This document shows, in pieces, positions 11,300-55,654 of a stretch of DNA of 64,000 nt. Origin of the DNA: Clostridia bacterium (GTDB taxonomy: Bacteria > Bacillota > Clostridia > Christensenellales > Aristaeellaceae); the NCBI GenBank assembly GCA_045546035.1, contig JAZQCB010000035.1, forward strand, positions 6,445 through 70,444. Reading direction: 5' to 3'. Numbering within the stretch: position 1 is the stretch's first letter; each line of letters starts with the position of its first letter. The translations under genes were made by a program, and so were the position numbers. The notes under the pieces are model-generated. The model made no database searches and was not told the origin of the DNA. It saw only the letters and a program-made list of their open reading frames with translations.

Positions 11300-11370
11300 T
11301 GGGGAATGGTGTAACGGCAGCACCTACGACTCTGACTCGTATTGTCTAGGTTCGAATCCTAGTTCCCCAG
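11300..11370 (+). tRNA. tRNA-Gln (anticodon CTG)
   Basis: Acceptor TGGGGAA/TTCCCCA, anticodon arm TACGA-CTCTGAC-TCGTA, T-arm GGTTCGAATCC; CCA not encoded. Confidence 0.95.
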
Positions 11371-11384
11371 CTTTTCTTTTTTCT

Positions 11385-11457
11385 GGCTCCGTTGTCTAGA
11401 GGCCTAGGACGCCGCCCTCTCAAGGCGGAAACACGGGTTCGAATCCCGTCGGAGCTG
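11385..11457 (+). tRNA. tRNA-Glu (anticodon CTC)
   Basis: Acceptor GGCTCCG/CGGAGCT, anticodon arm CCGCC-CTCTCAA-GGCGG, T-arm GGGTTCGAATCCC; CCA not encoded. Confidence 0.95.
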
Positions 11458-44642: not shown

Positions 44643-46580
44643 TCAGCTTTTCTCGTTCCAGGAAATGGCGCTGACGTCGGACTTGGCCAGGCTGCCGATG
44701 CCCTGGCTCTGGGCCAGGGGACGGGCTTCGGGGGTCAGCTCCTCCAGGGAGGGAAGGGAACCCACCACGTTGTCCGCCAGATAATCCATGCAGAGGATTT
44801 CCGCCGGGGTCAGCCGCTGATCCGGAGCGCAGCGGAGGATTCCCTGCTGGTCCTTCATCTCCCCTTCGAAGGGGGTAAAGGCCTGATCCCGGAACTGGGC
44901 CTGGAGGATTTTGATCAGGCGGACGGCGGCGGGATCCATCCGGGAGGAGAAGACCACGTCCAGGGTGTCCGCGCTGATCCCCCACCAGTAGGCCAGGGAG
45001 GAGGAGCTGCTTTCGGAGGCAGCGTCCATGACGCCCTTGAGCATCAGCTCCATGATATGCTGATAGAAGACGCCCCACCGGGGCACCAGGGTCGCGATGG
45101 AGCGGATTTCCCCATCCTGGCGGACATAAAGGCCGGAATCCCGGGAGGAGGGATTGGGGGCGGTCAGATCCCGGTTGCAGATGACCTGGATCGAGGGATC
45201 GTGGAAGGGCTCCACCGGGTCAAAGCTGAGAAGGGAAGTCCAGTTGAGGTAGATGTGGGCGTCCGGGTTCACCATGCGGGCCCCCACGGCGAAAGAGTTG
45301 ATCATGCTGGGGGTTCCGTAAATCGGATAATCGGCGATGTAGCCGATTTTTCCGTTTTTGGCCAGCAGCCCCGCCGCCATGCCCAGCAGGAACTTGGCCT
45401 CGAAGAAGCGGAGGTAATAGGTGGGCACATGGTGATAACCCGTCAGCTGGCTGCAGACCAGCAGCTTTTTATCCGGATGGCGCAGGGAGGGCTCGATGAA
45501 GCTGTTGAGCATCAGCGGCGAGGTGGCGAAAATCAGCTGTACCCCGTCCTTGATGAGCCGCTCGATCTCCTCCTCCGTTTCCGCCCGGGAGGGCGTAATC
45601 CGGTTCAGGGTTTCCACCCGGTCCCCCAGCTTTTCCTGAGCCTCCAGCCGGCCCATATCGTGCCAGTAATTCCAGGCGGAGTCGGGGATGGAGCGGGTAT
45701 AGAGGAAGGCCGCCTTGATCTTGGAGGGATGGAAGAGGGCGTTGATCAGCGTCGGGGCGGGATCATTTTCCCGATGATCCATGACCAGACTCATCTCATC
45801 CTCCCGGAGGAGGAACTCCTCCTGCATCAGGCGGACATTCTTTTCCACGTCCGAAAGGCTCATATCCCGGACATCCTCATAGCCGAAGGCCAGCAGCCAC
45901 CGGAGAAAGGCGTCCCCGCAGGGAATGAGGGCCTTTTCCTGCCCCATGTTCCGATAGACAGAATAGAAATAATGGTACAGCTTCTTCAGACTCAGGGTAT
46001 CGTCTTGGGACCAGGTATCGCCGCTTTTCATCCCCGGCAGGGAGGAGAGCCGGTCATAGGAGCCGGGCTTGGTCAGGAAGAGGTCATAGAGGCCGCTGGC
46101 CTTGGAAAAGTCGCAGTATTCATAATAGACGACGACGGCGGGATCCTCCGTCCGCACCGGGAGGGCCCGGGTCACGTCCGCGTCGATGTACTCCGCGTCC
46201 AGGAATTTCAGGACGCTGGTCCGCTTATTGCCCTCCACCAGATAGTAATACCCCATGTATTCCACCATCTTGGCCGGATCGCGCATGCCGTCCTTTTCGA
46301 TGGAGTCATAAAGGAGGGACCATTTGGTGCAGAATTCGGAGTTCATCTCCAGAATCGGCATAAAGTTGTTGGCAAAGGCGTAGGACCGGCCACGGGAAAC
46401 GGAGCCCACCACCCGATCCAGGGGGATGGACTGGACGCCCAGGGAAACCCGGGTCAGGGAATTCAGGGCCGGCACCTTCTCCTCCAGCACCGGGAGATAG
46501 GGATCCGTATTGTTCCGGGTTGCCTGTCCGAAAGCCCGAAGGCCCTTCTGGCGGGCGCGGGCATAGTATTTCACATCCAT
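44643..46580 (-). CDS. ParB/Srx-like N-terminal domain fused to a BMP/PnrA-like ligand-binding domain, no signal peptide
   Basis: IPLDRVVGS...YYLVEGNKRTSV (ParB-like); DSAWNYWHDMGR, GKIGYIADYPI, INSFAVGARMVNP (BMP-like). Confidence 0.7.
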   Translation of the reverse strand: MDVKYYARARQKGLRAFGQATRNNTDPYLPVLEEKVPALNSLTRVSLGVQSIPLDRVVGSVSRGRSYAFANNFMPILEMNSEFCTKWSLLYDSIEKDGMRDPAKMVEYMGYYYLVEGNKRTSVLKFLDAEYIDADVTRALPVRTEDPAVVVYYEYCDFSKASGLYDLFLTKPGSYDRLSSLPGMKSGDTWSQDDTLSLKKLYHYFYSVYRNMGQEKALIPCGDAFLRWLLAFGYEDVRDMSLSDVEKNVRLMQEEFLLREDEMSLVMDHRENDPAPTLINALFHPSKIKAAFLYTRSIPDSAWNYWHDMGRLEAQEKLGDRVETLNRITPSRAETEEEIERLIKDGVQLIFATSPLMLNSFIEPSLRHPDKKLLVCSQLTGYHHVPTYYLRFFEAKFLLGMAAGLLAKNGKIGYIADYPIYGTPSMINSFAVGARMVNPDAHIYLNWTSLLSFDPVEPFHDPSIQVICNRDLTAPNPSSRDSGLYVRQDGEIRSIATLVPRWGVFYQHIMELMLKGVMDAASESSSSSLAYWWGISADTLDVVFSSRMDPAAVRLIKILQAQFRDQAFTPFEGEMKDQQGILRCAPDQRLTPAEILCMDYLADNVVGSLPSLEELTPEARPLAQSQGIGSLAKSDVSAISWNEKS

Positions 46581-46625: not shown

Positions 46626-47381
46626 TCAGGGCCGCGTCAGGTCGTACATCATGACGGCGGCGGCGACGGCCGCGTTCAGGGATTCGGCGCCGCCCCGCAT
46701 GGGCAGGCGCAGATGATGGGTGGCTTCCCGCCGGACCGCGGGGGAGACGCCGTTTCCCTCGTTTCCCACCACCAGCACCAGTTTATCACAAACGCCGCTT
46801 CTTTCATAGAAGGGATCTCCATCCAGCTGGGAGGAAAGGACCGAATAGCCCTCTTCCCGAAGCCGGGCCAGCTCCTCAGGCAGAGAGGCGGGAAAGGCGA
46901 GGCCCACCCGGAAAATGCTGCCCATGGTGGCCCGAAGGGTTTTCGGGGAAAAGACGTCGGCGCAGTCGGGACTGAGCAGAACGCCCCCGAAGCCGGCCGC
47001 GTCCGCCGTACGCACAATGGTACCCACGTTTCCCGGATCCTGGAGACCGTCCAGGGCGATGAGCTTTTCCCCGGCCATGGGGACGGAGCGCATCTCCACC
47101 GCCGCGGCGATGCCCTGGGGCGTTCTGGTATCGCAGACCGCCGCCAAAACCTCCTCCGGCATCACGCAGACCGGCAGATCCTCCGGCAGCCCCTCGGGGA
47201 GAGGATGATTCTCCCGCACAAGCAGGCAGCGGACGGAAAACCCGGAGGACAAGGCCTCGGCGGTCATTTTCTCCCCCTCCACCAGGAAGAGACCCGTCTC
47301 CTTCCGACCCTTCCGATCCTTCAGGGAGCGGAGAAGCCGCACCCGGGGGTTTTTCAGGGAAGACAGTTTTTCGATCCTCAT
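46626..47381 (-). CDS. TrmH/SpoU family RNA 2'-O-methyltransferase
   Basis: LQDPGNVGTIVRTA, VGNEGNG, ESLNAAVAAA; ATG 1 nt after the giant ORF's stop. Confidence 0.92.
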   Translation of the reverse strand: MRIEKLSSLKNPRVRLLRSLKDRKGRKETGLFLVEGEKMTAEALSSGFSVRCLLVRENHPLPEGLPEDLPVCVMPEEVLAAVCDTRTPQGIAAAVEMRSVPMAGEKLIALDGLQDPGNVGTIVRTADAAGFGGVLLSPDCADVFSPKTLRATMGSIFRVGLAFPASLPEELARLREEGYSVLSSQLDGDPFYERSGVCDKLVLVVGNEGNGVSPAVRREATHHLRLPMRGGAESLNAAVAAAVMMYDLTRP

Positions 47382-47382
47382 T

Positions 47383-50300
47383 TCAGGCAAAACCCTCCCG
47401 CAGGATATCCATCAGCAGCCCCGGAAACGCGCTGAGGGCGGAATAGGGCCGGGGCGCTTCCCCTCTCCCGGCGAAGGCCGCCTGGCCCGCCTGCAGGATA
47501 GCCTGGCGGCCAAAGGGAGTAAAGGGATCATAGTAATCATTGGCATACAGGCCGGGGAAGAGCAGGGCCGCCTCCTGGGGAAATTCCCGGCGGAAGCGGA
47601 CGAGAAATTCCGGCAGGAGCTCCTCCGGGCGGACCGAAATGGACGCGGGCACCGCGGAGGGCCGGGGAACGCCGGCGGTGGTTTCCCCCACGAGGGAAAG
47701 GCCCACCGGGATTTCCAGCTTTTTCTCCGCCGAGAAGACCAGATAAAGGGAGGAGACCCGGGGGTTGCGGAACATGGTAAGGAAATGCCAGAGGGCGGTT
47801 TTGACCGGCGGACTCATCCGCTCGATCCATCCGGCGCCCCGGCCCGCCAGGAAAAGGGTCATGCTTTCCGGCAGGGTATCGTTGCGCTGGCTGTCGCCGG
47901 CGATCTGGAGCAGCACCAGGCCGCAGAGCATCATCAGCCATCCGGCGTAAAAGAGCACCAGTGCGCCGGAGCGGCCGGGGGCGCCATCGGCGCGGCGCTG
48001 GGCCAGGGCGGAAAGAAGCATATCCTCGTGATCGGCCACCAGGGCGTCCAGGGCATAGCGGGCCTGGCGCAGGGCGGCGGCACCCGACCTGGCCCGGTCC
48101 AGCACGGCCCGGAAGGCGGCCAGGTCCTCCTGGAGCAGGGGATCGGGGATGAAGCCGAAATCGCTCCCGATCAGATCCGGATCCCGCAGGAGATCGGGCA
48201 GGAGCATATTATGGAAGCCCAGGGGCAGCTGGCAGGTACGGGCGGCGGCTTCCCGGCCCCGCAGGAACAGGGAGATATCCGCCGTATCGGCCCCCAGATC
48301 CAGCGTCATGAACCCGCCGCGGGCGTCCTCCGGGGAGCAGAAGCGGAAATAGGCGCCCAGCGCGCTGCTTTCCGGGGCGAACAGCACGGGAGGAGCTTTG
48401 GGGGGCAGGGGCAGCCCGCTTTCCTCCCGGATTTTTTCCGCCAGGGAATGGAAAAGATCCGCCAGCCTGCCCCGGCCCTCGGAGGCCATCTCATCCGGCA
48501 GGGCGGCCCGCCATCCCAGGGAGGCGGCGCCGGCCAGCCGGGCCTGCAGCGCGGCCATGAGCATGATCTGATGGAGACAGAGCCGGACGGAACGGCCCTT
48601 CTCGCCGTTCCATTTCAGATCGGTATACAGCGCCTCCGGGGGAACATCCAGCACGTCCCGCAGGGAGGAGGACATGAAGACGCAGCTGTCCCGGAAGGGA
48701 AGATCCCCGGCGCCGGGCTCGTTCCGGAAAATGCGGAGGGCGGCGGGAAGCAGCGCCGAAACCGGCACCGCCGGCAGGAACTCCCGCCAGAGCAGATCCT
48801 CCGCGGCGGCGGGGCTGCGCAAAATGGTCCGGACGGAAACGGGCCCTTGGAGGGGGAAGCGGCGGCTGCCCTCGGTAAAGATCACCGAGAGGGCCGAGGC
48901 GCCGAAATCGATGCAGGCCGTCCAGTCCCCGCCGGCGGGCAGATCCGGGGCGGGCAGGAGATTCGGCAGGGCGCCGACGCTTCGCCCTCCCTTTCGGAAA
49001 AGATAGCACAGGGGAAAGGCCAGGGTGCAGGCGGAAAAGCGCGGGGCGCTGCCGCCGACGGGGATGATCTCCTTCCCGGTGCACAGGGAAATCTGGAGAT
49101 CCTCCGGGCAATGGGCATAGGTAAAATAGGCCCGCCATTTTTCCGGATCGAAGGGCAGGGAGGGCCAGAGAGCGACGGTGGGCAGATCATGCGCGTAGAA
49201 GGGAATGATCTCCTCCCCGGCATAGACGCGGGTCAGCTTCAGGGTAAAGGCACCCTCCAGCGTCAGGGACGCACGGATACGGCTTCCCTCGGCGGAGAAG
49301 GACAGAAACCCGTCCCGGATCAGGGTTCGGCCGCGGGGCGTCCGGCACAGCATGGCGGCAAAATCCGGATCCAGCGGGGGCAGCGCCGCGTCGGAACGGA
49401 CGGCGGCTGCGGGCGCCCGTTCCTGTTCCTGAAAATCCGCCGCGGGTTCGCCGGAGGATTCCGTATTTTCCGCTTCGGCGGGAGCGTCGGCTTCCCGGGA
49501 GATCAGACAGAGGGAGGACAGCAGCGCGTCGCCGATGACCTCGCCTCCCCGGGCGGGAATCAGGGCCAGGGCCTCGCTGAAGGGCCGCAGGGCGGCGGAG
49601 GCCAGCTCCGGCCCCAGGCATTCGGTCAAAATCGTCTGGACCGAGGCGGAAACCGTATCCCAGGGCCAGGTCAGCTCGGTGACTTCCTCCCGGATCGGTT
49701 CCTTCGCCTCCTCCAGCAGCTTCCGCGCGACGGCGGTGGCCTGGGGATCGGCGCCGGGGTAGCGGGCCAGCAGTTCCTCCAGCCCGGCGGCCAGCGCCTC
49801 ATGATAATCGTCGGAGGAGTGCTCCAGAATATCGCACTCGGTGTTCAGGGAGGCCAGGAGGGTCTCCTCCTCCGGCGCGTGCGCGCTTTCCAGAAGGAAA
49901 ACGGCGCTTTCCCGGGCGAGGGGGGTGCCCCGGAAGGTATAAAGCACATCCTCGGACACCTTCGCCTGGGCCGCGGCAAAGGAAGGGCTTCCGCTCAGGG
50001 CGGCGCAGACGGCGTCCGCCTCCAGGCCGGATTCAAAGCGGGACACTGCCCGGGAGAGCTCCTTCTGCCAGATGGGCAGACGGGTCAGCCCGCAGGCGAT
50101 CCGAAGCCGGAGGGAAAGGGAAGGATCCTCCTGGTGGCCGGGACGGGCGTGGACGATGTCCTGATGCCAGTCCGCCAGAAAATCCAGGAAGGGCTTGCTG
50201 CAAGCGTCCTTCATGTCCGCCCGCATGCGGGTCAGCTGCTCCGTGAGAATCCGGCGGTCCCCCTCGCTCAGATACAGGCAGGGATCCCGGAATTCGGCGG

Positions 50301-52599
50301 TTTCCCGATCCGCCCAGACGGCAAAGGAGGGAATGAGATCCGTATCCGCTTTCATCAGATGCGCGGGCTCCAGCCCCAGACCCGGCAGCAGCACAGCCAC
50401 CGGCGCCCGGCGGCTTTCCCGGCAGAGGCAGGCGATGAACGCGCCTTTGGCCCCCCGGGAGGAAAGATAGACCTGGGAAAGGGGCGCGTCCCCCGGGGAA
50501 ATGGGAAGGAGCTCGAGGGATGCGTCCGCCCCGGCGCGGCGCCGGTATTCCCGCAGGATCAGAAGGGCCAGCAGCCCCCGGCGGACATGGGTGCGATCCG
50601 GCTCCACGGGGGCGATCAGCCGGCCCGCGGCGGCGGACAGGGGGAAGAAACGGCTTTCCCCCCGAAGATCCGGCAGCAGCGGCACGGCGGGCACATCCCC
50701 GGCGCTCTGGAAGCGGACGCCGGACACCTCCACCCCGCAGACGGAGAAGACCCCTTCCATCAGGCTGCGCAGGGGAGCTTCGGCATCCGGCCGGCGGCAC
50801 ACCGTCAGCAGGTTTTTCAGCAGCATCCGGCTGTCGTTCATGGGATAGCCCTTCAGGAGCGAACCCAGCCCGTCCCGCAGGGCCCGGGCGGCGTTTTCCG
50901 ATTCCTCGCCGGAGGCGGTCAGCATCGTAAAGGCGTTTTCCGCCAGGGCGGGATCCAGAATCTCTCCGGCAAAGGGAGAAGAGGGGCGCCGGGAGCCGGG
51001 CACGAAAAGCGCTTCTCTTTCGCAGGCAGCCTCCAGATCCCGCAGACAGCGCTCCACCGCGGCTTTCAGCATGCGGACCCGCCGCTCCTGCAGACCCAGG
51101 GCGTAGCGCTCCTCGGCAGAGCCGGCGGGCAGCAGCACCAGCTTTTCCCGGGCACTGACCTCCGCCACCCGGCAGCGGGCCAGACAGTCCTCCAGCGCCT
51201 GGCGGGCGCGGAAGCCCCCCAGGGCGCGGAACACGCCGGCGCGCTCGCCTTCCGCGGCGGAGAGCGTGGCCGCCATCCGGTCCAGCTTGCGGAGCTGCTC
51301 CTCCTCGGCGGTGTCGCTCATGGAGGCCCGATGCACGGGCTGCACCTTATCGAGGCCGGAATCCTCGGCCTCCTTCCGGCTGACATCGTATTCGGAGCCC
51401 ACCGTCACAGTCCGCCCGCAGGCGCGCACCGCCTCCTGCCAGAGGGCCGTGGCCTGATCCGCCTCCCGCAGGGGGGCGGGCAGGGCCCGGATCAGCGTCA
51501 GAATCTGCAGACAGATGGCTTTCAGCGCCCGCTCCACCGTGTCCAGCTCCCGCGGGAAAGACACGCCCCCCTCCCCGGAACGGAAAATCCGGCGGAAAAG
51601 GCCGCCCCGCGAGGCGGGCGCCAGGGAGCGGAGCAGGGCGGGATGATCGAAAAACTGGCGGAGGGAGGGAAACAGATCGCTCAGGCACCAGAAGGCGCCC
51701 CGGAGAAAGGCGGCGGCGGGCCGGGCCTGCTGATCCAGGGCCTGCAGGGTCAGGATGCCGGGAGCCTCGCGGGTGTGGAGCCCGGCGGAGGGCACCTTTG
51801 GCCCGCCCAGCGCTTCCCCCAGCACCCGGGCCGCGGCCCAGTCCATGAGACGCCGGGACTCCTCCCCGTCGACCAGGGAGGCGGGCAGGCCCAGCAGCCA
51901 GCAGGCGTCGGCGCCCGTGGTTTCCCGATCGTCCGAGGGGCGAACGAGCTGGCGGTCGCTGAGGGCGGAAAGGGCGGAGCGGGCGTCGCCCAGGGCGCCC
52001 TCTGCGCTGTCGCGGACTTCGGCAATCAGCCCAAGGAAGGGGGCTTTTTCCGGAAAGGAACGGCGGAAAAAGCGCAGGACGGCGCAGGCCAGCCCCGCGG
52101 CGAATCCGTCGGTCAGGTCGCACAGGAGCATGACCCGGACATCCTCGCCCCGGGCCAATAAGAGGGCCATCTCGTCCTTCATCCGCAGGAGCGGAGCGCA
52201 GGCGTCCCCGCCCTCCTCCAGCAGGGCGGAAAGGGCCCATTCGGCGGCTTCCCGATCCGTCCGGAAGGAAAGGGGCTGGTTTTCTCCCCGCAGGGCGGAG
52301 AGAAGCAGCGCGGAGGCCTCGTTTCCGATCAGGCGGGAGCGCTCCGGCAGCTCCGGCTGCCAGACCTCGGAGGAGAAAGAAGCGCGGAAAAGGGAAAAAG
52401 CGTCCTTTCCGGCAAAAAAACGATGGCAGGCGTTGATATCCTCCATCATGGCGCCGGCCAGGGAGTCGGGGGCGGAGGGCAGGATCCGCAGCATGGAAAC
52501 CTCGGGCACTTCCCGAACCGCGCCGCAGCTGAAGGCGGCCAGAATGGCGGGAAGGGACCGGTCGGCCGCCTCGCCCAGCGGAAGGAAATATGCTTTCAA
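47383..52599 (-). CDS. 1738-aa protein: degenerate tubulin-like N-terminus, helical middle, actin/Hsp70-fold C-terminus
   Basis: TTG start with AGAGGGG RBS; IDFGAS (about 48900), LDLGADTAD (about 48290) and LAGRGA (about 47840) fit the actin-fold phosphate-1, phosphate-2 and adenosine motifs; the N-terminus patterns like Tubulin_2. The CDS is likely real, the domain call is tentative. Confidence 0.6.
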   Translation of the reverse strand: MKAYFLPLGEAADRSLPAILAAFSCGAVREVPEVSMLRILPSAPDSLAGAMMEDINACHRFFAGKDAFSLFRASFSSEVWQPELPERSRLIGNEASALLLSALRGENQPLSFRTDREAAEWALSALLEEGGDACAPLLRMKDEMALLLARGEDVRVMLLCDLTDGFAAGLACAVLRFFRRSFPEKAPFLGLIAEVRDSAEGALGDARSALSALSDRQLVRPSDDRETTGADACWLLGLPASLVDGEESRRLMDWAAARVLGEALGGPKVPSAGLHTREAPGILTLQALDQQARPAAAFLRGAFWCLSDLFPSLRQFFDHPALLRSLAPASRGGLFRRIFRSGEGGVSFPRELDTVERALKAICLQILTLIRALPAPLREADQATALWQEAVRACGRTVTVGSEYDVSRKEAEDSGLDKVQPVHRASMSDTAEEEQLRKLDRMAATLSAAEGERAGVFRALGGFRARQALEDCLARCRVAEVSAREKLVLLPAGSAEERYALGLQERRVRMLKAAVERCLRDLEAACEREALFVPGSRRPSSPFAGEILDPALAENAFTMLTASGEESENAARALRDGLGSLLKGYPMNDSRMLLKNLLTVCRRPDAEAPLRSLMEGVFSVCGVEVSGVRFQSAGDVPAVPLLPDLRGESRFFPLSAAAGRLIAPVEPDRTHVRRGLLALLILREYRRRAGADASLELLPISPGDAPLSQVYLSSRGAKGAFIACLCRESRRAPVAVLLPGLGLEPAHLMKADTDLIPSFAVWADRETAEFRDPCLYLSEGDRRILTEQLTRMRADMKDACSKPFLDFLADWHQDIVHARPGHQEDPSLSLRLRIACGLTRLPIWQKELSRAVSRFESGLEADAVCAALSGSPSFAAAQAKVSEDVLYTFRGTPLARESAVFLLESAHAPEEETLLASLNTECDILEHSSDDYHEALAAGLEELLARYPGADPQATAVARKLLEEAKEPIREEVTELTWPWDTVSASVQTILTECLGPELASAALRPFSEALALIPARGGEVIGDALLSSLCLISREADAPAEAENTESSGEPAADFQEQERAPAAAVRSDAALPPLDPDFAAMLCRTPRGRTLIRDGFLSFSAEGSRIRASLTLEGAFTLKLTRVYAGEEIIPFYAHDLPTVALWPSLPFDPEKWRAYFTYAHCPEDLQISLCTGKEIIPVGGSAPRFSACTLAFPLCYLFRKGGRSVGALPNLLPAPDLPAGGDWTACIDFGASALSVIFTEGSRRFPLQGPVSVRTILRSPAAAEDLLWREFLPAVPVSALLPAALRIFRNEPGAGDLPFRDSCVFMSSSLRDVLDVPPEALYTDLKWNGEKGRSVRLCLHQIMLMAALQARLAGAASLGWRAALPDEMASEGRGRLADLFHSLAEKIREESGLPLPPKAPPVLFAPESSALGAYFRFCSPEDARGGFMTLDLGADTADISLFLRGREAAARTCQLPLGFHNMLLPDLLRDPDLIGSDFGFIPDPLLQEDLAAFRAVLDRARSGAAALRQARYALDALVADHEDMLLSALAQRRADGAPGRSGALVLFYAGWLMMLCGLVLLQIAGDSQRNDTLPESMTLFLAGRGAGWIERMSPPVKTALWHFLTMFRNPRVSSLYLVFSAEKKLEIPVGLSLVGETTAGVPRPSAVPASISVRPEELLPEFLVRFRREFPQEAALLFPGLYANDYYDPFTPFGRQAILQAGQAAFAGRGEAPRPYSALSAFPGLLMDILREGFA

Positions 52600-52915
52600 A
52601 AGGAACCCCTCTTTTCAGAAAAAGGCTTTTTATCGAACCGCGCCAGGGGAAACCGCGGAAGGTTTGGCCGGAGCGCGGGAAAAAGAAAGGAAGACGGCAG
52701 CGGGCGCAACCTTCGCCGCACGGGCCGCGAACCGGGAAAAAAAGAACGGCAGCGGGCGAAATCTTTGGCGCGCAGGCCGAGGACGGGGAACGGAATTCCC
52801 GGCAAACCACAGACCATAAACATTTCTCCGCGGAGGAGCTGAATCCCTGCTTTTTGCAGGCACTGTTTGTATGCTATACTGCCCGGGAGAGCGCTTCCGA
52901 AACGTGGCGCGATGG

Positions 52916-53040
52916 GGGCGACCGTCCCATCATCGTGCCGGTGAAAAGCGCTGGGCCCGGCGAGGGGCGCGATGGCCGCGGGCGACCGTCCCATCATCGT
53001 GCCGATGAAAAGCGCAGGGCCCGGCGGGGCGCGACGGCCG
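52916..53040 (+). repeat. near-perfect 64-bp tandem duplication in an intergenic leader
   Basis: Units start at 52916 and 52980 (gggcgaccgtcccatcatcgtgccg...ggccg); 3 substitutions and one 2-nt indel. Confidence 0.9.
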
Positions 53041-53074
53041 AGAGCTTTATTTTCGGGGAAAGGAAAACGAAGAG

Positions 53075-53308
53075 ATGAAAAAGGAAAACGTGCTGCCGGC
53101 GATGGGCGCGGCGCTGTGGATTCTGGGACTGATTCTGGCGATTGTGGGGCTGAATATTCGGAGCGACGCAGGCCGGGGGCTCGCGGTGGCCGGAAACATC
53201 CTGTTCCTCGTCGGGCTTGGCATCGAGGGCGTGGTCTGGGTCCGGAAAAAGAAAACGGAGGACGAAAAGACGCCGGCTGACGGAAAAACGAGCAGAAAAA
53301 CGCAGTAA
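53075..53308 (+). CDS. small two-TM membrane protein
   Basis: Two hydrophobic helices and a Lys-rich tail (77 aa). Confidence 0.7.
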   Translation: MKKENVLPAMGAALWILGLILAIVGLNIRSDAGRGLAVAGNILFLVGLGIEGVVWVRKKKTEDEKTPADGKTSRKTQ

Positions 53309-53608: not shown

Positions 53609-54142
53609 ATGAAGCTGATCATTAACGCGAGAAACATGTCCGTCACCCCCGGGATTACCAAACGGGTGGAAAAGAAAACCAATACCATGAGCCGCTATCT
53701 GCTTCCCGAAACCGAGATGCAGGTTCGGATGCGGAAGGAAAAGGACGAGAAGCGGGTTGTGGAGATTACGGTTCCCATGGGAAACAACGTGATTCTTCGG
53801 AGCGAGGCGGCCGATCAGAACCTGTTCGTGGCCATCGACCAGGCGCTGGCCAAGATTGAGCGCCAGATCCGTAAGCACAGGACCAAGCTGGCCAAGCGCC
53901 TCCGGGAAGACGCGTTTGTGGAAGTACCGGAGTATTACGAGGAGGAAACGGAGGAAGAGGATCGGAAGGTCGTCCGGCGGAAGACCTTCCCGGTTCGCCC
54001 CATGAGCGTGGAAGACGCGATTATCGAGATGGAAATGCTGGGGCACAATTTCTTCGCTTTTGTCAATATCGATACCGAGCGGACCAACGTCCTGTACCTG
54101 CGCAAGGACGGGAACCTGGGTCTGCTGGAACCCGAAGCGTAA
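53609..54142 (+). CDS. hpf: ribosome hibernation promoting factor (long HPF)
   Basis: NLFVAIDQALAKIERQIRKHRTK and KTFPVRPMSVEDAIIEMEMLGHNFFAF C-terminal domain; AAGGAG RBS. Confidence 0.95.
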   Translation: MKLIINARNMSVTPGITKRVEKKTNTMSRYLLPETEMQVRMRKEKDEKRVVEITVPMGNNVILRSEAADQNLFVAIDQALAKIERQIRKHRTKLAKRLREDAFVEVPEYYEEETEEEDRKVVRRKTFPVRPMSVEDAIIEMEMLGHNFFAFVNIDTERTNVLYLRKDGNLGLLEPEA

Positions 54143-54569: not shown

Positions 54570-54778
54570 CTGGAAGCGGAGCCGCCATTCCGGCCGATTG
54601 CAATGAAGAATCGGCTTCGGCCGCTGCGGGCGGGGGAAGCAACCGGAAGCGGGACTGCCATTCCGGCCGCCCGGGGCGAGGACATGGCCTCGGCCGCCGC
54701 GGAAAGGCGGAATCGCGGCCTCCGGCGAATTCGCGGGAGGTCCTGTGAACGACAAAATGGATGGAGGAAAAGAAGCAA

Positions 54779-55654
54779 ATGAAGTGGTTTATGGATGTGC
54801 TGCGGGGCATGGTGATCGGCCTGGCCAACGTGATTCCCGGGGTGTCCGGCGGAACGATGATGGTTTCCATGGGCATCTATGACAAGCTGATCTGGTCGAT
54901 CAATCACCTGTTTACGAAGTTTAAGGAATGCATCAAGGTGCTGCTGCCCTATCTGGTGGGCATGGTGCTGGCCATCGCCCTGGGGGCGATTGGACTGAAG
55001 GCGGCCTTCGCCAACTTCCCCCTGCCGACCAACGCGCTGTTCATCGGCCTGATTCTGGGCAGCCTGCCCTTCATCCTCAAGGAAATGAAGGGGGAGAAGA
55101 TCGGCTGGCAGGGCGTGGTCGTCTTCGTACTGTTCTTCGCGCTGGTGGTGGTGCTCAAGGCCGTGGAGGCGAACAACAAGGCCGCCATCGAGCTGAACGT
55201 CCTGGAGGTTATCAAGCTCCTGTGCCTGGGCGCCATCGCCTCCGCCACCATGGTCATCCCCGGCGTGTCCGGCAGCATGATCCTGAAAACCCTGGGGTAT
55301 TATGAGCCCATCGTGACCGAGGCGATCCCCGCCCTGCTCAAGGGAATCTCCTCCGGAAACGGCGATATGATCCTGCACAATGTGGGCATTCTGCTGCCCT
55401 TCGGCATCGGCATCGTCGTGGGCATCTTCGGCATCGCGAAGCTGATCGCCTTCCTGATGAAGAAATGGAAGGGCCGGACCTATTGCGCGATTCTGGGCAT
55501 GGTGGCCGCGTCCCCGGTGGTGATTCTGATGGATCCTTCCATCTACGAGGGATTCAATGTGTGGATCTGCGTGGCGTCGGTGGTGTGCCTGGCGCTGGGC
55601 GTGTTCGTGGCCTTCAAGCTGGGCGGCGATCCGGAACCCGCGAAGGAAGCATAA
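54779..55654 (+). CDS. DUF368 protein (undecaprenyl-phosphate translocase family)
   Basis: Duplicated motifs ANVIPGVSGGT and MVIPGVSGS; multi-TM. Start may be 54761. Confidence 0.9.
   Translation: MKWFMDVLRGMVIGLANVIPGVSGGTMMVSMGIYDKLIWSINHLFTKFKECIKVLLPYLVGMVLAIALGAIGLKAAFANFPLPTNALFIGLILGSLPFILKEMKGEKIGWQGVVVFVLFFALVVVLKAVEANNKAAIELNVLEVIKLLCLGAIASATMVIPGVSGSMILKTLGYYEPIVTEAIPALLKGISSGNGDMILHNVGILLPFGIGIVVGIFGIAKLIAFLMKKWKGRTYCAILGMVAASPVVILMDPSIYEGFNVWICVASVVCLALGVFVAFKLGGDPEPAKEA

Follow-up and report, generated by a model that had tools for sequence, protein, structure and literature searches.

Which domains make up a 1738-residue protein of an uncultured Clostridia bacterium, and how did they come to stand in one chain? 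The question is raised by a stretch of 64,000 nucleotides (nt) of contig JAZQCB010000035.1 (assembly GCA_045546035.1, positions 6,445 to 70,444; GTDB lineage Clostridia, Christensenellales, Aristaeellaceae), called the window below, which carries on its minus strand a giant gene of 1738 codons plus stop (47383..52599). A first-pass annotation of the bare sequence had proposed that this gene joins a degenerate tubulin-like domain to a degenerate actin/Hsp70-like one. Our analysis leads to a more specific reading, to which we assign a probability of about 0.6: the giant gene would be the single-chain fusion of a two-gene module of Clostridia, in which a tubulin-like scaffold and an ATP-driven half with the ASKHA (actin/Hsp70-type) fold form an obligate 1:1 pair.

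The minus-strand open reading frame (ORF) is a real gene, because it has 75 full-length homologues and a coding signature, with a G+C content of 72/51/82% at codon positions 1/2/3 as expected of a coding frame; the local G+C content is 68-71%. The TTG start and good ribosome-binding site described in the first-pass annotation are both present, the latter reading AGAGGGG 6 nt upstream of the TTG (52606..52612, minus strand, as are all features of the giant gene given below). TTG occupies the aligned first codon in 21 of the 26 homologous loci with a start codon at that position, the others having ATG (3) or GTG (2) (match starts, loci L001-L038), and this conservation of a weak start suggests selection for low translation initiation of a very large protein. 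A plus-strand ORF of 1458 codons (47785..52161) was considered as a gene and rejected: it is a glycine-, proline- and glutamine-rich antisense shadow, and the conservation lies in the minus frame.

The 75 homologues, collected by searching 5.8 billion proteins, are 1700-1890 residues long and 39-98% identical to the query; all come from metagenome-assembled genomes (MAGs) of Clostridia and all are unnamed or labelled hypothetical. A scan of one genome per species located the giant gene in 39 species-level genomes, which are MAGs from ruminant and other guts labelled Clostridia, Clostridiales, Christensenellales or Oscillospiraceae. The whole giant protein found no match in Pfam, NCBIfam, PADLOC or the PDB sequences, even at thresholds of E≤1-10; in Pfam, this includes PF00091, PF13809, PF00012 and PF07520, with 0 matches at E≤1. 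A profile hidden Markov model (HMM) of each half returned only noise from the PDB sequences, with no PDB Hsp70 sequence matched. In hhalign comparisons, the family profiles did not align with Bacillus subtilis FtsZ, and aligned with the nucleotide-binding domain (NBD) of Escherichia coli DnaK at the PHOSPHATE-1 motif only (E 0.003, 10% probability), both reference sequences having been typed by hand. Word-indexed searches with alignments of the C-terminal part or of the separate partner proteins described below recovered only the fused family or fragments.

For structure prediction, the protein was split at a variable acidic linker, and residues 2-1045 and 1046-1738 were modelled by AlphaFold2 (AF2) with family alignments. 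The model of the N-terminal part (predicted local distance difference test, pLDDT, 87.5; predicted template-modelling score, pTM, 0.81) starts as a Rossmann-like fold, in which strands alternate with helices as far as residue ~275, and then has a 34-residue helix. When this part was compared with the PDB by Foldseek, almost all of the top 50 matches belonged to the tubulin/FtsZ superfamily, among them gamma-tubulin, Asgard/Odin tubulins, FtsZ, TubZ, BtubA and CetZ, with a probability of ~1.0 over 270-310 aligned columns and E-values of 3.8e-3 to 3e-2. Among the viral models of BFVD, phage tubulin, PhuZ and FtsZ were the only high-probability matches (best E 8.9e-4). Relatives supply the sequence evidence. 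We scanned 21 sequences against Pfam, namely the N-terminal part of the window's protein, three other proteins of the fused clade and 17 relatives of the split type described below: 7 of the 21 matched Tubulin_2 (PF13809; best E 2.6e-11) and 4 matched Tubulin (PF00091; best E 1.7e-6), and one relative, P0201, passed the Tubulin_2 gathering threshold (27.7 bits against a cut-off of 27). The N-terminal half is therefore tied to the tubulin/FtsZ superfamily by sequence plus fold, the sequence link being transitive. Residues ~1-320 (51640..52599) are thus assigned, on the AF2 model, Foldseek and the Pfam matches of relatives, to an FtsZl1/Tubulin_2-type tubulin/FtsZ-like alpha/beta domain with an H7-like long helix, and the predicted fold of the N-terminal domain is that of tubulin/FtsZ.

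The C-terminal part was modelled with similar scores (pLDDT 86.6, pTM 0.88). Foldseek returned 733 PDB matches at E≤1e-3, and the top matches were all ASKHA proteins: DnaK/Hsp70 NBDs (E 4e-8, probability 1.0), the BeeR filament, actin and ParM. The domain spans residues ~1225-1738 (47386..48927) and consists, in the model, of two RNase-H-like lobes with all four ASKHA motifs at the expected hairpins and junctions. PHOSPHATE-1, ACIDFGAS (residues 1228-1235, 48895..48918), lies on the beta1-beta2 hairpin, and PHOSPHATE-2, LDLGADTAD (1433-1441, 48277..48303), on the first hairpin of the second lobe; a CONNECT-1-like motif of the Hsp70/MreB kind, FAPESSALGAYFR (1407-1419, 48343..48381), and the ADENOSINE motif LAGRGAG (1584-1590, 47830..47850) each sit at a strand-to-helix junction. 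The cores of these motifs are D1231-F-G1233, E1410-S-S-A-L-G-A-Y, D1434-L-G-A-D-T1439-A-D and G1586-R-G1588. The sequence-only reading had already listed three of them in the correct order (1228-1235, 1433-1441 and 1584-1590), and the Hsp70/actin-type fold that it expected is the one that the model adopts. We conclude that the C-terminal domain, as modelled, is an ASKHA fold. Its predicted nucleotide site appears to be maintained, not dead, because the motif residues are invariant among homologues of 39-98% identity: D1231, G1233, D1434, G1436, G1586 and G1588 are identical in all 75, T1439 and D1441 are kept in 72, and E1410 is kept in 69, with aspartate in 4 more. LDxGGGS and GRG are also kept in the separate partner proteins, at ~25% identity. 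The suggestion that both halves are catalytically dead is consequently plausible for the tubulin-like half, whose T1 and T4 loops have decayed, but is not supported for the ASKHA half. The first-pass annotation had used the label SrfB (PF07520), a family of sizeable bacterial proteins that are uncharacterised and to which an actin-like ATPase fold is ascribed; this label is not supported, PF07520 matching neither the giant protein (E≤1) nor four of the split partners (E≤0.01). A membrane anchor was also considered and rejected: no membrane-spanning segment is predicted, and the sole hydrophobic stretch, residues 1545-1568, is a high-confidence helix buried in the ASKHA core of the model.

How did two such folds come to share one chain? 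We searched 1.84 billion representatives exhaustively with an HMM profile of the N-terminal part and identified 208 proteins at E≤1e-3, which included three classes: the full-length forms of ~1700 residues; among the matches listed, 15 proteins of 624-680 residues that match query residues 1-630; and, again among those listed, ~45 proteins of 1020-1270 residues whose own N-termini match query residues ~655-1045. The two shorter classes are the products of neighbouring genes. We examined eight split loci (L040-L042 and L044-L048), and each has the short tubulin-like gene directly upstream of the long partner gene. At the seven junctions that were read, the two coding regions share 1-4 nt (ATGA or TGATG), and GGAGG stands just upstream; the genes of the L045 pair are separated by 55 nt. 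The split module thus comprises a tubulin-like protein of ~625-700 residues and a partner of ~1050-1230 residues that ends in an actin-like domain. In L041, the long gene product matches query residues 674-1713 with 28% identity (E 2e-98), all ASKHA motifs included, and the short gene product, P0169, matches residues 127-614 with 25% identity (E 1e-14).

The split and the fused module are found at one and the same chromosomal site. In many fused loci (of the L008 type), the same-strand upstream genes encode a Bac_transf phosphoglycosyl transferase, an NTP-transferase and an epimerase; all three are also found ahead of the split pairs of L046 and L047, and the epimerase alone ahead of that of L045. 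Between L008 and the split loci L045-L047, the epimerases are 72-77%, the NTP-transferases 69% and the Bac_transf proteins 47-58% identical. Downstream of the split pair, L047 carries a SpoU methylase, 50% identical to that of the window, and a Metallophos_2 gene, and the window has the same kinds of genes downstream of the giant gene. Because split and fused forms share this site, two coupled genes were fused in place to give the giant gene, and the expectation that partners usually encoded separately are joined here is borne out. The event took place at the ATGA-type stop/start overlap of the two module genes. Identity between split and fused forms is no more than 25-30% in the module itself but 69-77% in the epimerase and NTP-transferase next to it; the module therefore evolves unusually fast. 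A second and far more divergent fused form, P0117, has 1635 residues, with GKTGER and ADLSEDTDLSG as loops and differences in some of the ASKHA motifs (DPGESGT, DFGHAAT); it could have branched off early or stem from a separate fusion event.

Comparison with the split forms shows what became of the GTP site. The glycine-rich T1 (GxGxxG) and T4 (GGGTG(S/T)G) loops are absent from the giant protein, which has PLGEAADR and CDLTDGFAAG instead, and the whole fused clade reads PLGEAADR and CDLxD(P/G)F(S/A)AG at these positions in the alignment. Many split proteins have T1-type GGxGxR/K and T4-type loops, such as CGASFGGTGAAG or GSLCGGTGAAG, and in some the loops are already lost (GAMEDAMSAAG). The loss of the GGTG loops, previously proposed from the giant protein by itself, is thus established by direct comparison with relatives that keep them. 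The T4-equivalent site, LLCDLTDGFAAG (residues 158-169, 52093..52128), is degenerate, with D161 kept in 71 and G169 in all of the 75 homologues; this string and GADACWLLGLPAS (residues 229-241) are the ones originally quoted in support of a tubulin-like N-terminus. The model contains no C-terminal tubulin/FtsZ beta domain, only helices following the H7-like helix up to about residue 690, and no T7 loop is found: the conserved segment after H7 reads HPAxLRSLAP, not NxDxxD/E. Tubulins and FtsZ require both elements for polymerisation of the head-to-tail, GTPase-activating type.

The two modelled ends are joined by several further regions. According to the AF2 model and family alignment, residues ~330-530 (51010..51612) form an extended helical, coiled-coil-like region; conservation across the family peaks here, in the block ACGRxVTVxSEYDV...PVHRxSxxDTEEE (residues 393-434). 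An alpha-helical domain (~549-625, 50725..50955) matches the end of the protein that gene 1 encodes in the split relatives, and the fusion junction follows at residues ~626-673 (50581..50724), where PLLPD is the counterpart of FLPD at the N-terminus of the separate partners. The partner-derived moiety opens with a mixed alpha/beta middle domain (~674-1030, 49510..50580), defined by the model and the partner alignment and containing an invariant WPWD (978-981) and FPARGGExIGD. It continues with the acidic low-complexity linker (~1031-1075, 49375..49509), of variable length among homologues and with pLDDT <50, and with an all-beta domain (~1095-1215, 48955..49317) that precedes the ASKHA fold in the model. 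The middle of the protein had been described as helical and coiled-coil-like; this is correct for the long helices of residues ~285-530 and the helical domain up to ~625, but not for residues 675-1030, which are alpha/beta, or 1095-1215, which are all-beta. Overall, the checks that had been suggested, structure prediction of both ends and collection of homologues with their neighbourhoods, retrieved both the tubulin/FtsZ and the ASKHA folds, the 75 full-length homologues and a conserved syntenic context.

How might such a protein work? Gene 1 of the module encodes a divergent FtsZl1/Tubulin_2-type protein with a tubulin fold, coiled-coil-like helices and a helical domain, and gene 2 an uncharacterised partner with an alpha/beta domain, a beta domain and a C-terminal ASKHA ATPase fold. 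The overlap of the two genes, and later their fusion, would enforce a 1:1 stoichiometry. The N-terminal module would no longer be a GTP-driven polymer and could, by way of its coiled coil, be a scaffold with a structural or oligomerising role, while the ASKHA half would supply an ATP-dependent conformational, switch or assembly cycle. By analogy, the two halves may act together as tubulin-like FtsZ does with actin-like FtsA.

FtsZ and FtsA belong to the tubulin and the actin (ASKHA) superfamilies, are encoded by adjacent genes and are direct partners. The analogy therefore lies in the pairing of a tubulin-fold with an actin-fold protein from adjacent genes, and it has its bounds: ftsA precedes ftsZ, whereas the tubulin-like gene comes first in the split module; no sequence similarity was detected to either protein, and the GTP loops of the giant protein are degenerate; and the giant protein is one chain with ~900 additional residues of coiled-coil, alpha/beta and beta domains. 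With the Hsp70 NBD, ParM, MreB and BeeR, the C-terminal domain shares the two-lobed ASKHA fold with the four motifs structurally in place. The likeness is one of fold only: Pfam and HMM searches gave no match, the alpha/beta and beta domains in front of the ASKHA domain are specific to the family, and the protein ends with the ASKHA fold and has no Hsp70 substrate-binding domain.

The closest described systems to the N-terminal half are the FtsZ-like families of Makarova and Koonin (2010), which Pfam groups as Tubulin_2 (PMC9871819; PMC2875224). FtsZl1 combines an FtsZ-like domain with an extended coiled coil and an alpha-helical C-terminal domain and is devoid of an identifiable T6-H7 or C-terminal FtsZ domain; its operons encode vWA proteins, a divergent GTPase, membrane proteins and the uncharacterised families B1-B9, and a role in membrane remodelling was predicted for it (PMC2875224). 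The first 625 residues of the giant protein have the same order of parts (alpha/beta to residue 320, long helices from 330 to 530, helical domain from 549 to 625) and likewise lack a T7 loop and a recognisable C-terminal domain of the tubulin/FtsZ kind, and split relatives of this half reach Tubulin_2. One split pair, in L044 (700-23182), even stands within an FtsZl1-vWA-like locus: its proteins of 696 and 1233 residues are encoded amid an S8 peptidase, three unknown proteins of 697-825 residues, a vWA protein and a second Tubulin_2 protein of 1207 residues. On the other hand, the giant protein is not matched by PF13809 or PF00091 and is without the family-defining GGGTG(S/T)G signature. No vWA, GTPase or OmpA partner is found near the giant gene, a vWA gene occurring only in the distant locus L044, and the window and the 39 fused loci carry SpoU methylase, HPF and sugar-nucleotide genes instead. 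The giant protein is moreover fused to an ASKHA partner, which the 2010 description does not mention (PMC2875224). A supplementary row of that study lists, in Chloroflexus aggregans, a 1083-residue 'GrpE' (COG0576) gene adjoining a 763-residue FtsZl1, which may be the same pair (PMC2875224). In the literature searched, we found no experimental work on FtsZl1 and no description of a tubulin-like/ASKHA pair or fusion; relative to the computationally defined FtsZl1/Tubulin_2 systems, the ASKHA partner, the tight coupling and the fusion would be new.

Downstream, the giant gene is followed on the same strand by a SpoU/TrmH-family RNA 2'-O-methyltransferase (46626..47381; PF00588, E 4e-36, plus an MRM3-like substrate-binding domain). 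Its likely ATG stands in frame 1 nt after the TGA of the giant gene, whose last codons include GGGAGGG; an alternative upstream TTG (46626..47390) gives an 8-nt overlap. Since either start yields it, the tight coupling of the two genes, already remarked upon in the first-pass annotation, is real. The methylase gene is found downstream in all 34 fused loci with downstream DNA; L030 (13157-14593) is the only one in which it is not directly next, a ~1.4 kb insert with a 464-residue minus-strand ORF lying between. Beyond the methylase gene, the window encodes a 645-residue protein (44643-46580, minus) with a Bmp/PnrA-like substrate-binding domain at residues 288-448 only, its N-terminal region of ~290 residues having no Pfam match; it adjoins the methylase gene in 7 loci.

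The ~470-nt region 5' of the giant gene contains two pairs of near-tandem direct repeats (52694-53045), one of 54 nt with 93% identity (52916-52969/52980-53033) and one of 45 nt with 80% identity (52694-52738/52746-52790). It has no Rfam match and no convincing promoter, and Rfam, promoter and terminator scans gave nothing relevant near the giant gene; the only Rfam matches in the window are two adjacent tRNA genes (11300-11457, plus). A 77-residue ORF with two hydrophobic helices, MKKENVLPAMGAALWILGLILAIVGLN...GNILFLVGLGIEGVVWVRKKK (53075-53308, plus), lies between the giant gene and the divergent gene of the long-form ribosome hibernation factor HPF (53609-54142, plus), and a VCA0040-like/DUF368 undecaprenyl-phosphate (Und-P) translocase is encoded further on (54761-55654, plus). 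The closest loci of the fused clade share these upstream genes, HPF in 8 and DUF368 in 3. In one metatranscriptome, HPF contigs were ~10-fold deeper than those of the giant gene. The recurrence of phosphoglycosyl transferase, nucleotidyl transferase, epimerase and Und-P translocase genes points weakly to the cell envelope, glycopolymer biogenesis or cell shape, in agreement with the membrane remodelling predicted earlier for FtsZl1. Our best guess, by analogy, is an ATP-driven scaffold comparable to FtsZ-FtsA and possibly linked to the cell envelope.

Several observations weigh against this reading or parts of it. The likeness of the giant protein itself to tubulin/FtsZ and to Hsp70/actin is not detectable by sequence methods. 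The Foldseek E-values of the tubulin domain are modest (3.8e-3 in the PDB, 8.9e-4 in BFVD), because the query is 1044 residues long, and the TM-scores are 0.27-0.43. Polar residues near the former GTP site (R104, D115, E117, D161, D231 and H275) are conserved in the fused clade, and this pattern could indicate a new ligand or activity of the old pocket and not a mere scaffold. The evidence for transcription is weak: contigs cover parts of the giant gene in four ruminant-gut metatranscriptomes (bovine, sheep), and these are low-depth assembled contigs for which DNA carry-over is possible. Finally, the envelope link comes from the neighbourhood only, and this varies, L041, L042 and L048 having other neighbours.

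Other explanations account for part of these data. If both NTPase folds were inert, the protein would be a purely structural scaffold, as the clearly degenerate T1/T4 loops and the failure of every active-family sequence model to recognise either half might suggest. This is unlikely: the P1, P2 and adenosine residues of the ASKHA domain are invariant in the 75 homologues and kept in the split partners at ~25% identity, a retention that, judged from the alignments, would be hard to explain without nucleotide binding. Activity of the ASKHA half could also be that of an Hsp70-type chaperone machine, in which the C-terminal NBD-like ATPase would be served by the coiled-coil N-terminal part as a built-in co-chaperone or exchange factor. 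DnaK/Hsp70 NBDs are the best Foldseek matches, and both CONNECT-1 (E-S-S-A-L-G-A-Y) and PHOSPHATE-2 (DLGADTAD, or DxGGGS in the split partners) are Hsp70-like; the 'GrpE' label of the Chloroflexus aggregans gene would point the same way if that gene is homologous. Nevertheless, actin, ParM and BeeR score nearly as well, the ASKHA fold stands at the extreme C-terminus with no Hsp70 substrate-binding domain, PF00012 is not matched and no DnaJ or GrpE genes occur in the neighbourhood, which leaves this explanation quite improbable.

We attach an equally small probability to a sensor or effector of an anti-phage or conflict system that would use the two NTPase folds as switch and scaffold, a role also raised in the first-pass annotation. 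The setting of the L044 pair amid vWA, second Tubulin_2, S8 peptidase and large unknown proteins recalls multi-NTPase/vWA assemblies discussed as conflict systems, and the fast evolution of the module relative to its neighbours is a further point in favour. However, the giant gene is single-copy and stands at the same position beside housekeeping genes in the 34 fused loci with downstream DNA and in split relatives, its presence across the 39 species-level genomes of one lineage is not patchy, no integrase, transposase, toxin or nuclease domain is encoded nearby, and PADLOC-DB v2 yields no defence component at E≤1. A defence role is hence unlikely, and that proposal is not retained. Least probable of all is a joint role with the downstream TrmH/SpoU methylase in rRNA or tRNA modification or ribosome biogenesis. 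The constant downstream position of the methylase gene in the fused loci, its 1-nt spacing in the window and the presence of HPF upstream in the closest relatives speak for it, but four of the six split loci with downstream DNA (L041, L042, L045 and L046) have other genes there, L044 continues with FtsZl1-vWA-type genes, and the methylase gene of L047 is parted from the pair by a YitT gene. An RNA-binding domain was not detected either, and inherited synteny within one lineage explains the linkage; a functional methylase link is not supported outside the fused clade.

The fused two-gene module of a tubulin-like scaffold and an ATP-driven ASKHA half remains our preferred reading. It provides a fold and family assignment for ~200 clusters of 'hypothetical' proteins left unannotated by Pfam and NCBIfam, bar weak Tubulin_2 matches on some gene-1 relatives, and it links a hidden ASKHA partner to one FtsZl1/Tubulin_2 branch. 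The two great families of cytomotive proteins are the tubulin-fold and the actin-fold NTPases; FtsZ-FtsA aside, we know of no dedicated gene pair that combines them, and, to our knowledge, no described protein contains both folds in one chain. A bolder and rather doubtful extension is that the split pair and its fusion represent an unrecognised cytoskeletal or remodelling machine of Clostridia, built from obligate tubulin- and actin-superfamily partners as a second, independent counterpart of FtsZ-FtsA. If this were true, the fused clade would be a natural experiment in which a pseudo-GTPase tubulin half scaffolds an active actin-like motor. The evolutionary series, from split forms with GTP loops through split forms with decayed loops to the fusion with decayed loops, makes the role of an FtsZ-like protein after the loss of GTP binding experimentally approachable, in hosts that are abundant, uncultured Clostridia of the ruminant gut.

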